From an uncultured Cytophagales bacterium (GTDB lineage Bacteria; Bacteroidota; Bacteroidia; Cytophagales; Bernardetiaceae), in the NCBI GenBank assembly GCA_963719525.1, contig CAVRCG010000004.1, positions 989,579 through 1,053,578 of the forward strand: 64,000 nt of DNA, given 5' to 3'. Of this stretch, positions 4,129-57,767 are shown piece by piece. Both the position numbers and the translations under genes were made by a program. The notes under the pieces are model-generated. The model was not told where the DNA came from. It searched no databases and saw nothing but the letters and a program-made list of their open reading frames with translations. Each line of letters begins with the position of its first letter. Positions within the stretch are counted from its first letter, which is position 1.

Positions 4129-4625
4129 TGAAATTTTTAAATTGAAATAACACTTTTTTATCAAGAGTAAATTTGTCCGTAGTTATAAGAAACTATCATT
4201 TTTTTCGAAAACAAGTTTATATGCAGAAATTGGAAAATGTTACTCATAGTGTAACTCAAGTTACGTATTACAGATTTCTTATTTTATGTAACTAAAAAAT
4301 GAGCTATTTTAACGACAAATTCCTATTTATTTAGATTAGAAATTCTAAAATATGGCATACTGCACAACTTGAAATATGTAGATAAAGTGTTGATAACAGC
4401 CAGCTAATTAAAAGTGATTGGTAACAAACTTTGATTAAAAGGTTTAATTTTTGAAGAAGTAAGTACTGACAGAAATTGTACGTTCATAGAGGAACTAATA
4501 AAACGAATAAATACATCGTTTTGTGTAATTTTAGAGTAAATGGTACGTTGTTAATTAAATAACTGATATTCTTGAAAGTACTAGAGCAACACAACAACTG
4601 CAATAAACAGAACTTTTGAACAATA

Positions 4626-5000
4626 AATGTTATCACGGTTAATTTAGTAATGTTCATCTTTCCATAATGACAGATTTGCAAACCCTATCGATTACCCACA
4701 AGTCTAAAATGTGTATTTTTCGGTAAAAAAGGACTAAAATTTTGAATTAAAGGGAAAAGGCACGCCTTTTCCTAAACATAGTGTGTAATTTCGACTGAAA
4801 TATCAACGACCGACTAGGAAAAGGCGTGCCTTTTCCCTACACATACAGAAATTTCATTCAACATCTAATGTTTTTTTGCCTTCAAAAAACATGTGGGTAA
4901 ACAGTAGGATTTGCAAACCTTTCATTATGGAAAAAGAAGACTGTTTTGCTTTTCTATAACAATTGATTATTAGACCTGTAGAAAACCGTGATAACGTTTA
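4626..5000. repeat. Copy A of a MITE-like nested-palindromic element: outer inverted repeats GTTATCACGGTT/AACCGTGATAAC, inner arms around a GATTTGCAAACC core, and an innermost GGAAAAGGCACGCCTTTTCC hairpin pair
   Basis: Several nested inverted repeats were read directly from the sequence. Related copies occur at 43146-43277 and 57075-57451. Confidence 0.6.
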
Positions 5001-5234
5001 ATGTTACTGTGAAGCAGTTGAATTTATTTCAAACAAAGAACAGACGAGTTGTAGATAAAAATGCTTATCTTTGTGATAATTTCATTTTTAAATCAGAAAA
5101 CAAAAGTAATTGTAGCTTCCTCAAATTCTCAACAACGCTACCATAATTAATATAGTACTGAAATACCTTAACTAGTACAAACAAATCTAAGAACATAAAA
5201 TACTACCATTTTTTTATATCATTCAAAGGAAAAT

Positions 5235-10983: not shown

Positions 10984-13674
10984 ATGGGAAGTGCAGCCAA
11001 AACAATTCCTAATCTATTTATTGATAATGCAAGTACAGGAGATGTAGTAAACATAAACACATCAGACTTACAAGCTCCAGCCAATCGTATCACGTTTAGA
11101 GATATTACAGGTGCACAAAATGGTCTTACCTTTAATGTAAATGGTGATGCTCCAAAAACGTATGGAAATATTAGTTTTCCAAATGATATGACGGCACGTT
11201 TTAATGGAACTCAAAATCCTCTGACAAATCCATCAACAACATTACCAGAAACAGACACAAATATTTTTGGAGGAACAGTCAATTTTGGTACAAATACAAG
11301 AGTAACTTGGAATTCGGATAATACCTTCAAAGACGATGTGGAAATAATATCTACTCCTACTAACGTTGATAGAGCAGTAAATTTTGTAAGAAATAATATT
11401 TTTACCGTTGATGCACCACTTACATTTACAGGACCAGGTTGGGCAAGAGTTGGATTTAATGCAGATAATACTTTCACAGAGTTTGGAGCAGCCGTTGCTT
11501 TTAATGGAACACGCAACATTCTTAGATTTGATGGAAATGGTAATACAGAGCTTATTTTCAAAAGCACACTTTTTGTTAATTCGAATGGAGGCGCACAAGC
11601 CGATGTAGATTTTAGATCTCAAGCAACATTTGAAGGTAATGTAGAATTCGGAGAAGCTACAGGAGGAGATGCTACGGCAGAAATGTTTTTTAATAATGGT
11701 ATTTCTATGCCCAACATAAATACAACCTTTACGATGGGAGCAGACTCAAGAATGAGAATACGAGGTGCGCCTGTTAGGTTAAGAGATATGATTATTGGAG
11801 AAAACAATGAGATTACGTTTAATAGTACTGTAGAGATAGATAATATGCAGCTCTCCAAATTTGATGTAATTAACTTTCCTCAAAGTAGTGGAGGTGCAAA
11901 TTCAGGAACTACTACCATTAATGAATACATTACTGCTAGAGAAGATTGTGCAGGTTGGATAAATCTTCGCTCAAATCTAACAGGCGTACAAGCGCAGATA
12001 GATTTTGAAACTGCACATACAACAGTAGGAAACAGAAACTTCCTCTATACTTTCGTTCAAGATATTTGGAACAGAGACTTGGGTGGAAATCCATTGCAAG
12101 TAGTACAAGCAGACCCTGATGTAGTTTCTGATATTGGAAATAATGATGGTATTACATTTATCAATAATGTAGCTTCTCGTACTTTCTACTGGGTAAGAAG
12201 TGATAATGAAAAAGCAAATAATCAAAACAGCACAGGAAATTGGAATGATTTGGATCAAGATAATCACTGGGCAACATCTTCTGGAGGAAATGCAGTAGGT
12301 TGTATTCCAACAGCAAACGATAACGTCGTATTTGATGATAATTCATTTAGTTATACAGAAGCAGGTCAAGAACCAGAAGTAGTTACATTAGATAAGTTCT
12401 TCTCGTATGCCAAAAACATAACTTGGAATGTTACTTCAGATGCAAGTAGAGCCAGATTGATAGGAGATGATGCTAATACATTACAAATATTTGGTTCATT
12501 GTTATTCCAAAACAATATCACAGATGCAGATTGGAACGACTTTGAAGGTCTTACAGAATTTAAAGGTATAGCGACAGCCAACACTACAAAAACCATTGCC
12601 ATGAATGGCGCAAGATTAAATGGTCCTATTCTATTCAATGCACCAAATGATGTCTGGACAATCACAGATAATATGCGTGTAGAAGGAGGAGGAAGAGCAG
12701 ATATTACCTTCAACTATGGAGAAGTAAGAGCAGGAAACAATACCATTTCTTTAGAAGATAATTGGACAATAAACCTTCCTACTGCAGGTTTGAACCAATC
12801 TCTTTTTATAGCTGAAACAAGTACAGTAAACTTTAATGGAAATCAAGACGCACATATAAATATACTTGATCATCAAACAAATGCTAACTGTCTGGAGTGT
12901 TCGGATCAGAGTGCTGCCACTTCCCAGTTAAGAGGGTGTAGTGGAAGTCCTTTTTACAATCTTGTAGTGGATAAGCGTTATAATAGAAGATTAGAACTTC
13001 GTCAGACTATCAATATCTATAATAATCTTAGTATTTTAGTAGGAATTCTTGAAGATGACGGCTGGCAGATACGAGGAAATACAATAGGAACAGTAACGAT
13101 GGCAGATAATACGTGGTTACGTTTAGGAGCAGATGATAATGCAACTGCTTTTCCTACATGTTATCCATCTGCAAACATTACGTTAGGAGATGGTAATCCT
13201 GATGGTCGTATGAATAATTCTCTTAATCCAGATAACGTAACTACAAATCTGAAAGCATCTATTGTAGAATACCGTTGTCCAGATGCTCAACTTGTTCGTG
13301 GAGATATTACGTATGGTACTTTGCGTCTTAGAAGTGACGGAGGAGCAGGAGCAGGTAATCATATAAAACGTTTTACAGATGGAAACACGACTATAAATGG
13401 TAGTTTCATTATAGATGAAAGACAAATCGTTTATGATATGGGGTATCAAATAATAGGAAATAGTTTTAGTGAAGGAAATAGATTTGAGATGCGTGGTAAC
13501 TCTCAACTTATTTTAGGTACAAATCAAACTATAGCTGAACGTACTTACAATATAACTGTACGACCAGGTATTACTATTCCAACACCAGTAGCAGCAGATT
13601 TGGTTACTACGTTTCCTAGCTTTACTAATGGAGTCTACTCCTATGAACGACATCGCAAATGGTGGCAAAATTGA
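10984..13674 (+). CDS. Giant T9SS adhesin, segment 2 of 3 (frame +1 relative to segment 1; frame open from 10927)
   Basis: No signal peptide or ribosome-binding site of its own. The sequence family continues from segment 1 (…LFWVGG…NWN…CIPTANDNVVFDDNS). Confidence 0.65.
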   Translation: MGSAAKTIPNLFIDNASTGDVVNINTSDLQAPANRITFRDITGAQNGLTFNVNGDAPKTYGNISFPNDMTARFNGTQNPLTNPSTTLPETDTNIFGGTVNFGTNTRVTWNSDNTFKDDVEIISTPTNVDRAVNFVRNNIFTVDAPLTFTGPGWARVGFNADNTFTEFGAAVAFNGTRNILRFDGNGNTELIFKSTLFVNSNGGAQADVDFRSQATFEGNVEFGEATGGDATAEMFFNNGISMPNINTTFTMGADSRMRIRGAPVRLRDMIIGENNEITFNSTVEIDNMQLSKFDVINFPQSSGGANSGTTTINEYITAREDCAGWINLRSNLTGVQAQIDFETAHTTVGNRNFLYTFVQDIWNRDLGGNPLQVVQADPDVVSDIGNNDGITFINNVASRTFYWVRSDNEKANNQNSTGNWNDLDQDNHWATSSGGNAVGCIPTANDNVVFDDNSFSYTEAGQEPEVVTLDKFFSYAKNITWNVTSDASRARLIGDDANTLQIFGSLLFQNNITDADWNDFEGLTEFKGIATANTTKTIAMNGARLNGPILFNAPNDVWTITDNMRVEGGGRADITFNYGEVRAGNNTISLEDNWTINLPTAGLNQSLFIAETSTVNFNGNQDAHINILDHQTNANCLECSDQSAATSQLRGCSGSPFYNLVVDKRYNRRLELRQTINIYNNLSILVGILEDDGWQIRGNTIGTVTMADNTWLRLGADDNATAFPTCYPSANITLGDGNPDGRMNNSLNPDNVTTNLKASIVEYRCPDAQLVRGDITYGTLRLRSDGGAGAGNHIKRFTDGNTTINGSFIIDERQIVYDMGYQIIGNSFSEGNRFEMRGNSQLILGTNQTIAERTYNITVRPGITIPTPVAADLVTTFPSFTNGVYSYERHRKWWQN

Positions 13675-43038: not shown

Positions 43039-43145
43039 TTATTTAGACTAATTATAGATAATCTTATTTCCTGCAAAAATAAGATAGTTAGGGCATAAAA
43101 AAAAATGACTTCTGTCATTTTTTAGAATAATTCTAAATAAAAAAG

Positions 43146-43277
43146 GGTATCACAGTTGATTTAGTGCTGTCATTTTCCATAGTACTAGGTTTGCAAACCT
43201 AGTACTATAGAAAAATAAGACTGTTTTGCATTTCATATAACTTATTGATTACCAAATCTGTAAGTAACCGTGATACC
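43146..43277. repeat. Copy B of the MITE-like element (inverted repeats GGTATCACAGTT / AACCGTGATACC; perfect 34-bp palindrome CTATAGTACTAGGTTTGCAAACCTAGTACTATAG)
   Basis: Terminal inverted repeats and the TTTGCAAAC-centred palindrome. The right half is homologous to 4930-5000 (AAGACTGTTTTGC…AACCGTGATA). Confidence 0.6.
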
Positions 43278-43735
43278 GTTTAAAGATAAGAAATTATTAT
43301 TCAAAAATGTAGCAAATGCGTAAGCCTTCGGAAGTAAGGCAGCAAAAGAATGAACTAGCTTTAAATTTATAACCAAAAAATCAAAGTTACCTTGTCTTAG
43401 CAGTTAAAATAAAAACTTAAAATAGACATTATTTTAGTGAAAATTCAAGCAAAACCCCTATAAAATTTCTTTATTTAGAAATATTCAAAATAAGCAAAAT
43501 TTAGAATTACATATTGCAATGCTATTTTTTGTAACGTACCTTTGAATAGAGTTATTAGACTTAGTTAGACTTAATAAAATTATAAATTAATTTGCTTAAT
43601 TCTGTATAAATAGGTAAATAGAACCTACATTAAATTTAGTTTTGGCTCAAATTATTGCACCCAAAGAAAACAAAATCAACAACAATTTCTTTATTTTATA
43701 TTCTTTCACAAATTAATCACTAAAACCAACTTCCT

Positions 43736-46756: not shown

Positions 46757-46789
46757 AGACCCTAAGGGTTTTAAAAACCCTTAGGGTCT
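46757..46789 (+). other. Perfect 33-nt palindrome between sdhA and sdhB (AGACCCTAAGGGTTTT A AAAACCCTTAGGGTCT), followed by TTTGCAAAC
   Basis: 16-bp arms, GC-rich for this genome, 5 nt after the sdhA stop codon. A weak T-tract argues against a strong terminator. Confidence 0.6.
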
Positions 46790-46831
46790 TTGCAAACAAC
46801 AACTTTCAATTAAATAGAAATACATAAAATT

Positions 46832-57000: not shown

Positions 57001-57074
57001 AGATTTTTAGTATTTTTTTGAGAAATTAAAAAGAAATAAGTTGAGCAATAATAAAAAAAGCTGTATGATAAAAT

Positions 57075-57451
57075 GGTATCACGGTTACTTGCAAGTCTAA
57101 TAATCAGTAATTCACTAATGTTATGCAACATCAAAGTTTAGAGAAGTTTAGACCAAACCCACGAATTTATTCGTGGGAAAGTAACCACTACTTTTTACAT
57201 AAATCTACTTTACATAAATCTACTTTTCCGTTTTATTAAAATTACTCCTTTTATTTTATTTCAGAATAGAGTAGAAACAAAAAAACGAAGAAGGTAGTGG
57301 TAGCTTCCACGAATAAATTCGTGGGTTTCATTTTAATTGCGTAACATCAGTAATTCATATAAAATAGAAATAGGCTTGTTTCTCCATAGCAACACGTTTG
57401 CAAACCTGTTGTTATGGAGAAATGAACAGTACTAAATGGATCGTGATAACC
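57075..57451. repeat. Copy C of the MITE-like element (inverted repeats GGTATCACGGTTA / ATCGTGATAACC; core palindrome CTCCATAGCAACACGTTTGCAAACCTGTTGTTATGGAG), carrying a nested ~170-bp insertion that is itself palindromic (two CCCACGAATTTATTCGTGGG palindromes, a tandem TACATAAATCTACTT x2 and GTAACCACTAC/GTAGTGGTAGC arms)
   Basis: Inverted repeats and palindromes read directly from the sequence. Confidence 0.6.
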
Positions 57452-57767
57452 TTTATTATTTAGGAAGCACAAAATTCCAAAAAAATAGTGTCTTATCAAA
57501 TTTATTTTCAAATATGTCTCTAAAATTAAATTAACTTATACATCATCCTATCTTAACCCTACTTAGTTTAATTGTTTCTTATTCGACTTTAACTTGTTTG
57601 ATTTCGTAAAATCTATACGCAATAAAAGAAGATATACAAAAGACTTTTCAAAAATTTGATACAAACATACGGCATTTTCAATAAATTTGCTTACTTTTAA
57701 CTGTATAGTTAGTAAATATATTCTATCTTTAGTTTAAAATATATAAAGAACAAAAACGATTTCAATT

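Follow-up and report, generated by a model that had tools for sequence, protein, structure and literature searches.

Among the small mobile repeats described in bacteria, the Correia elements of Neisseria have 26-bp repeats, an IHF site, and a TA duplication, and the IS5 subgroups IS1031, ISL2, and IS427 produce duplications of 2-4 bp. Within the Cytophagales, MITECca01 of Cardinium is a MITE of the IS982 family that derives from ISCca4 and carries the ISCca4 inverted repeats, and it is the nearest reported MITE within the order (PMC9769881). The repeat family described here was recognized in a 64-kb stretch of DNA (the window, which always refers to this whole stretch) from an uncultured member of the Bernardetiaceae, a family of the same order. 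The repeats are very probably non-autonomous transposable elements (MITEs) of the Bernardetiaceae, and two of the three copies in the window (A and C, but not B) would owe their present form to a history of successive insertions. The MITE family is real, has recently been active in Bernardetia, and is ordinary in kind. It is also apparently undescribed so far; a literature search on the core sequence, and on repeats or MITEs in Bernardetia, found no relevant paper.

Intact units are 133-148 bp long (about 140-145 bp), contain no ORF, and end in 17-bp terminal inverted repeats, AAACGTTATCACGGTTA ... TAACCGTGATAACGTTT, rather than the ~12-bp repeats given in an earlier note that was made from the window sequence. 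Across 16 copies (alignment A3), these termini are 90% paired, and both partners have changed in only 3 pairs. The asymmetric interior contains a perfect central hairpin of 44-50 bp, T5CCATAG-N6-GGTTTGCAAACC-N6'-CTATGGA5, and the consensus for the whole unit is TAAACGTTATCACGGTTAATTTAGTAATGTTCATTTTTCCATAG-N6-GGTTTGCAAACC-N6'-CTATGGAAAAATAAGACTGTTTTGCTTTTCTCTAACTAATTGATTATTAGACCTGTAAATAACCGTGATAACGTTTA. The family thus has the small size, the terminal inverted repeats, and the lack of coding capacity that are typical of MITEs, as are its fixed 3-bp target duplication, dispersed copies, and presence or absence between close relatives. By eye, the features of integron attC sites are not apparent, as the copies are solitary, the palindrome has no bulges, and no GTTRRRY core is seen.

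Within the 64-kb window, an nhmmer search with a profile of seven sequences, including copy B and a reconstituted copy A, found exactly three loci, which correspond to copies A, B, and C (Table 1). The earlier note had reported the same three copies and had placed them to within a few bases. Its observations that copy B is homologous to the right half of copy A, and that all three copies share an internal near-perfect palindrome, were likewise borne out, the latter by inverted-repeat detection. One correction concerns orientation, as copy C runs opposite to A and B. The neighbors of copy A are an S41 peptidase gene and a 1908-aa ORF that share the + strand, those of copy B are a TonB-dependent receptor gene and an sdhC-like gene in divergent arrangement, and those of copy C are a 205-aa ORF and a JAB-domain gene, likewise divergent. 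No ORF of at least 90 aa overlaps any of the three, in agreement with the earlier description of them as non-coding. A search for tRNA genes in the window found none, and none of the 16 window proteins scanned against Pfam was identified as a transposase.

Table 1. Coordinates of the family copies in the window, of the elements nested in them, and of related elements in other loci. Refined copy limits were drawn from the sequence and alignment A3; positions without a locus name are those of the window.
Feature	Position	Strand	Length	Details
Copy A, family unit split by nested insert	4625-4999	+	375 bp	Found by profile and inverted repeats
Copy A, flanks	4622-4624; 5000-5002			AAT; AAT
Copy A, termini	4625-4641; 4983-4999			AAATGTTATCACGGTTA; its complement
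Copy A, profile matches	4624-4686; 4904-5001			
Copy A, outer arms	4619-4640 / 4984-5005		22 nt	91% complementary (inverted-repeat detection)
Copy A, hairpin arms	4659-4703 / 4889-4933		45 nt	84% complementary (inverted-repeat detection)
Copy A, inner arms	4751-4774 / 4815-4838		24 nt	100% complementary (inverted-repeat detection)
Copy A, left arm of central hairpin	4657-4684	+		Ends with first GATTTGCAAACC tip, 4673-4684
Copy A, second tip and right arm of central hairpin	4908-4935	+		Tip at 4908-4919
Nested element X in copy A	4685-4907		223 bp	Terminal inverted repeats CTATCGATTACCCACAAGT / ACATGTGGGTAAACAGTAG; lies between direct duplicates of the hairpin tip
REP-doublet-like hairpin pair inside X	4751-4838			GTAG-flanked, G+C-rich GGAAAAGGCACGCCTTTTCC twice, in inverted orientation
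Copy B, compact uninterrupted unit	43142-43281	+	140 bp	Flanks AAA / AAA
Copy B, terminal arms	43142-43157 / 43266-43281			
Copy B, central hairpin	43173-43214			Palindrome with 21-nt arms
Copy C, full unit, right arm split by nested MITE	57071-57454	-	384 bp	
Copy C, terminal arms	57071-57083 / 57442-57454			
Copy C, central hairpin	57379-57422			TTTCTCCATAGCAACACGTTTG / CAAACCTGTTGTTATGGAGAAA; 22-nt arms, 91% complementary
Copy C, inner arms	57155-57176 / 57307-57328			Belong to nested Y element
Nested Y-family MITE inside copy C	57110-57354		~245 bp	Termini TACTGATGTTAYGCAA
Central hairpin in another shell	L021 13641-13810			Termini CAACATGAGTGACATTT
Central hairpin in another shell	L021 767-950			Termini GGCTCTTA...
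Central hairpin in IS5-ended MITE	L035 28463-28598		~136 bp	Termini GAAGTTGTTTAAGAATA
Central hairpin in IS5-ended MITE	L042 about 11062-11220			Termini GAAGTTGTTTAAGAATA
Sister MITE family	L036 43917-44040			
Sister MITE family	L026 15525-15600			
Sister MITE family	L036 13240-13312			
Sister MITE family	L042 about 11068-11347			

The genome is AT-rich, and the 9-mer TTTGCAAAC is found outside the elements too, as are short palindromes, which would speak for chance resemblance among AT-rich intergenic hairpins, or among ordinary terminators or operators. A second profile was built from thirteen copies, all from other genomes, with the window copies left out. It recovered copy B with an E-value of 2.1e-29, copy C with 3.1e-21, and the two halves of copy A with 7.2e-22 and 7.1e-16, and after the three copies, the next-best match in the window reached only 0.56. 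Single-strand folding, a check that the earlier note had proposed, gave z-scores of -5.5 for copy B, -12.5 for copy A, and -8.4 for copy C against dinucleotide-preserving shuffles, none of which folded as well as the real copies. Matches to GGTTTGCAAACC with up to 2 mismatches number 10 in the window against 2.5 expected, and the four with at most 1 mismatch all lie in copies A, B, and C. A chance origin is barely conceivable in the face of E-values of 2e-29 to 3e-21 from a model that holds no window copy, and of the recurrence of the 140-bp unit in other genera. Together with the filled and empty site described below, the profile E-values have already refuted it.

It is clear from a comparison of close relatives that the family is mobile as DNA. 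In the Bernardetia strains Wsw4-3y2 (L029 35337-35481) and MNP-M8 (L030 11059-11203), 6 bp separate a copy from the stop codon of the preceding M48 peptidase gene, whereas in GCA_020630575 (L032) and the Logan contig SRR14416825 (L033), whose M48 protein is 97% identical, the corresponding intergenic region is 144 bp shorter. The flanks of the filled and empty sites are nearly identical over ~240 aligned bases (alignment A4). The empty allele reads ...TTAATCT ATT ATGAATTAC, and the filled allele reads ...TTAATCT ATT followed by the element, AAAGGTTATCAC ... GTGATAACGTTT, and then ATT ATGAATTAC, so that the two differ by a precise 144-bp insertion accompanied by a 3-bp duplication of ATT. The duplication argues for insertion at this site rather than excision. 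This direct evidence of mobility comes from one filled/empty pair; a second pair was sought at the L025 locus, where the site is likewise filled in MNP-M8, the one close relative available. Over the 16 aligned copies, the trinucleotides that abut the AAACG...CGTTT ends are A-W-T. In 8 of the 10 copies with AWT on both sides, including copy A (AAT / AAT), the two are the same, against 5 expected, a rate that taken alone is only suggestive. A relative with the same termini in ABR2-2B (L042) is flanked by ATT / ATT, and a systematic search for an outer-element target duplication of 6-14 bp found none.

The spacer between the M48 and RND-adaptor genes, occupied by the polymorphic copy in Wsw4-3y2 and MNP-M8, corresponds to L042 11041-11690 in ABR2-2B, where it contains three other small elements, one inside another. 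This spacer is a hot spot for MITE insertion.

The family is also dispersed among genomes. Besides a match in a Methanotrichaceae MAG (L005) that was set aside as a chance pattern match, a scan for the pattern in species-representative genomes returned five true matches, in OM2101, three Flexibacter sp. MAG contigs, and one Cytophagales MAG. A metagenome scan added fifteen further contigs, several of which represent the same population as the MAG. In a BLASTN search against plasmids, the sole match was a 601-kb replicon of Bernardetia sp. Wsw4-3y2, the first 400 kb of which contain two full copies and one hairpin-only match, and a copy is also present in Bernardetia sp. MNP-M8. No family copy was found in a phage collection or in two viral-contig scans, the sole viral-scan match (L039) being a chance match within a coding region. 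The further copies that the earlier note had suggested seeking in related genomes are therefore present, in other genera as well, and the MITE reading that it favored is supported both by the scatter of copies over four or more other genomes and by the filled and empty site with its 3-bp duplication.

Copies with N6 = CGACAG form a subfamily that is 91-95% identical among OM2101, Wsw4-3y2, and the Flexibacter MAG. This degree of identity exceeds what recognition of the terminal repeats would need, and it hints at either recent transfer between genomes or selection on the interior. By comparison, the three window copies share only 73-77% mutual identity and are therefore taken to be older, decayed members of the family.

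Two side observations concern the Wsw4-3y2 loci. The 601-kb replicon (NZ_CP147018.1; L026-L029 and L035-L038) is labelled a plasmid, carries numerous housekeeping genes, among them gyrB, uvrA, radA, rplS, thrS, trpS, and murD, and is collinear with MNP-M8 chromosome regions (L030 and L040) in both regions compared; it looks like a chromid or chromosome fragment, not a plasmid. The CDF transporter encoded at L025 5315-6184 is 82-85% identical to Flavobacteriaceae proteins (Lutibacter and Winogradskyella) and has only one close relative within Bernardetia, in MNP-M8 (99%), which suggests that its gene was acquired horizontally and recently.

The unusual length of copies A and C is explained by elements nested within them. 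Copy A had been described as one continuous imperfect palindrome; it is in fact an ordinary unit interrupted by the insertion of another element, X. In the Cytophagales MAG (L003), an insert that has the same CTAYYGWTTACCCACAWGT termini as X, and an unrelated interior, occupies the same hairpin-tip site, and in both cases the tip is present on either side of the insert. The palindromic tip, 12 bp long, would be a specific target for X. In copy A, the tip (GATTTGCAAACC) is asymmetric over its 12 bp and is repeated in direct orientation, which argues for a genuine 12-bp target duplication by X rather than for element ends that mimic the palindrome. A duplication of this length would predict an IS4-like enzyme as the partner of X. 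Single GTAG hairpins similar to GGAAAAGGCACGCCTTTTCC, which X carries twice, occur at L009 1185 and L014 1959. The nested palindromic insertion that the earlier note had seen in copy C is a member of a further family, Y, with the inner hairpin AAACCCACGAWTTTAWTCGTGG. The Y element is flanked by AAT on both sides (junctions read by eye), and its removal restores the family consensus. A solo Y copy is found at L021 about 557-734, and further Y copies at L026 15663-15729 and L042 about 11375-11535. The nested-palindrome appearance of these copies thus arose step by step, as one small palindromic element inserted into another.

To a greater degree than the termini, the central hairpin retains its pairing through change on both sides. 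Across the 16 copies of alignment A3, its 20 pairs are paired in 97.5% of cells, and 8 of the 20 are changed on both sides. Six of these eight are N6 positions, at which 3-7 of the 16 sequences differ on both sides. The base and tip of the hairpin are nearly invariant, and the middle 6 bp are hypervariable yet paired. The covariation score of 0.216 (0.101 in shuffles) was reached by 0 of 500 shuffles, and slid hairpin controls had only 40-47% of cells paired. In ~330 kb of scanned DNA, GGTTTGCAAACC at no more than 1 mismatch occurs within the hairpin context only, the sole exception in the further loci being a 1-mismatch match in a coding region (GGTTTGCAAAAC, L030 10225).

Such structure-preserving covariation might be expected of a non-coding or cis-regulatory RNA, for which the hairpin or the whole unit would be selected in the transcript, as an RNase III site or through an effect on stability or attenuation, with its spread being secondary. 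The 91-95% identity of the whole 140 bp between distinct genomes would fit such an RNA, and in RNA the hairpin with its T5 and A5 runs would pair perfectly over more than 20 bp. We nevertheless consider this explanation unlikely. The presence or absence of copies with a target duplication shows DNA mobility, and copies occur in either orientation and between genes of every arrangement (tandem for A, divergent for B and C, convergent at L025, and just past a stop codon at L029). A perfect palindrome, moreover, means that neither strand is distinguished. An intrinsic terminator was rejected, as T5 precedes the stem and an A-run (A5), not a T-run, comes after it on both strands. A Bacteroidetes -7 box (TAnnTTTG) in the tip was also discounted, since it fits only copy B and the L035 element, not the consensus CAGGTTTG. 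Rfam gave 0 matches in the 64 kb at gathering thresholds, in keeping with the earlier suggestion of an unannotated element, and a permissive search of copy B with E-values up to 10 returned only generic hairpin matches to miRNA-precursor models, at no more than 27 bits against thresholds of 50-245.

The hairpin also occurs apart from the AAACGTTATCACGGTTA termini. It is found in two other shells and in MITEs with GAAGTTGTTTAAGAATA termini (Table 1), and the latter are the termini of a full IS5-family element (L026 13833-14771) with a 3-bp ATG duplication. By eye, the two IS5-ended MITEs, which come from two Bernardetia species (L035 and L042), agree at nearly 90% of positions outside N6; averaged by column over the full alignment, with flanks and indels counted, their identity is 84%. 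Most of their N6 positions differ, in both arms. Conversely, a member of the CAACATGAGTGACATTT family (L020 2-244) has REP-like repeats in place of the hairpin. From these comparisons, we infer that the termini specify the transposase and that the hairpin would be an exchangeable interior module in which intrastrand pairing is important, since a reader of duplex DNA only would not require N6 to be self-complementary. A bolder version of this idea, in which the hairpin is an independent, structure-selected module that has entered four or more MITE lineages whose termini are unrelated, as a reusable "mobility enhancer" cassette, is tentative, and we regard it as possible rather than probable. 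A sister MITE family with TTATCACGGTT termini and interior hairpins AACAGTCTGGAAGACTGTT, without the GGTTTGCAAACC hairpin, was also observed (Table 1); the left terminus of its member in L042 is broken by the IS5-ended MITE.

The earlier note had offered a small-RNA or REP-like family as the alternative to a MITE, and neither is the primary identity of these repeats, even though the central hairpin covaries with its structure kept. A hairpin of the REP/REPIN type would move in single-stranded form, mobilized by a RAYT, which is a HUH transposase like those of IS200/IS605. The hairpin is the most conserved part of the unit and its pairing is maintained, Wsw4-3y2 has an IS200/IS605-family tnpA, and copy A contains the GTAG-flanked, G+C-rich hairpin doublet, all of which would suit such a mechanism. 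However, terminal inverted repeats and a 3-bp duplication are not products of HUH transposition, and the hairpin has no constant GTAG. The RAYT-like tnpA (L027 3960-4430) is flanked by GTTGCAG(A/C)GCAACG, with the family hairpin absent from its flanks, and the density of the family is low, at 2 full copies per 400 kb of the Wsw4-3y2 replicon. A REP/REPIN origin is thus very improbable, and transposition as a MITE remains the preferred reading. Just upstream of this lone tnpA, at L027 3700-3940, lie repeats of the form GTTGCAG(A/C)GCAACG...TTTGTAGAAC. The same REP-like repeat occurs at L020 30-200 and L009 150-220, and in the Flexibacter MAG it is found inside the CAACATGAGTGACATTT-ended MITE shell.

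The family would be moved in trans by a cut-and-paste transposase whose staggered cuts, 3 bp apart, fall at A-W-T sites. Of this scheme, the target and its duplication are observed, and we infer the transposase. Copy B would then represent a decayed solo copy, copy A would later have been hit by X at its hairpin tip, with duplication of 12 bp, and copy C would have been hit by a third MITE, Y, with duplication of AAT. The hairpin would most likely serve as a cruciform or hinge that joins the ends of a very short element, or else as a site recognized in its folded-strand form by a protein of the host or the transposon. A search for a cognate transposase with matching inverted repeats, as the earlier note had suggested, found no autonomous element with the family termini around a transposase gene in ~760 kb of related DNA, which comprised the window, 400 kb of the Wsw4-3y2 replicon, and other loci. 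Two resident IS5-family elements were considered as the parent and rejected, as their termini, GAAGTTGTTTAAGAATA and GAGCCTGTTCGAGTTT, are unrelated to AAACGTTATCACGGTTA. A link to the IS5 family would accordingly be suggested by the 3-bp length of the duplication and by the common hairpin module, not by the termini.

The earlier note had also placed the core of the family after the sdhA-sdhB palindrome at 46790. This occurrence, the 9-mer TTTGCAAAC at 46789, is a coincidence; it follows an ordinary terminator-like sdhA hairpin, has no hairpin context or other family feature, and is unmatched by the first profile. The window contains 12 occurrences of the 9-mer, where 1.9 would be expected, six inside the three elements and six elsewhere, and the latter (10164, 22211, 26913, 30530, 46789, and 60189) all lack the hairpin context. 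Near copy B, the window SdhC-like protein is 77%, 65%, and 64% identical to those of the Bernardetia sp. strains MNP-M8, ABR2-2B, and OM2101, respectively. The element is absent from the region upstream of the sdhC orthologue in Bernardetia sp. MNP-M8, and no precise empty site was found there, where the alignment covers the proximal promoter region only. About 80 bp upstream of sdhC, CTTTATTTAGAAATATTCAAAATAAGCAAAA...TTACATATTGCAATGCTATTTTTTG, are almost identical between the window (43469-43550) and MNP-M8 (L022 9718-9800), and the remaining spacer is unalignable between the two. This conserved stretch is probably the sdhCAB promoter or operator.

Recognition of the family accounts for several long structured intergenic regions that could be misread as RNA genes or as regulatory sites, and its copies provide markers for strain typing. 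The defined termini and the 3-bp A-W-T target also offer a handle for seeking the parent transposase. The host belongs to a little-studied family of marine Cytophagales, for which these repeats represent an apparently undescribed MITE family whose recent movement is documented directly by a filled and an empty site. The covarying hairpin in MITEs with unrelated termini further poses a testable question, namely how the two ends of a very short transposon are brought together. If the hairpin is indeed a reusable module, it could be a cruciform hinge that joins the ends of elements shorter than the DNA persistence length, or alternatively a folded-strand site for a protein.

In comparison with the systems introduced above, MITECca01 comes from the same bacterial order and is unrelated to the present family in termini and hairpin (PMC9769881). 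The Correia or NEMIS elements of Neisseria resemble the family in size (~100-155 bp), in their long, hairpin-folding terminal inverted repeats, and in their intergenic scatter near genes, but they share no sequence similarity with it and belong to another host phylum, and the present family duplicates 3 bp at A-W-T. The ERIC or IRU sequences of enterobacteria are likewise imperfect palindromes of ~127-140 bp that are conserved across genera and have larger variants through insertions at fixed internal sites. They are not homologous to the present family, and their mobility and duplication are not established, in contrast to the filled/empty pair available here. With the REP and REPIN sequences, the family shares a hairpin whose pairing is kept by compensatory change, and REP-like doublets are passengers inside copy A, but it differs from them in having terminal repeats and a target duplication and in lacking an association with a RAYT. 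A further parallel is with MITEs derived from the IS5 family, which are also small and non-coding, with terminal inverted repeats of ~17 bp and a 3-bp duplication. The resident IS5-family elements of Bernardetia make 3-bp duplications too (ATG and TTA), and one of them has a MITE derivative that bears the same central hairpin, although the AAACGTTATCACGGTTA termini of the present family differ from those of these resident elements.
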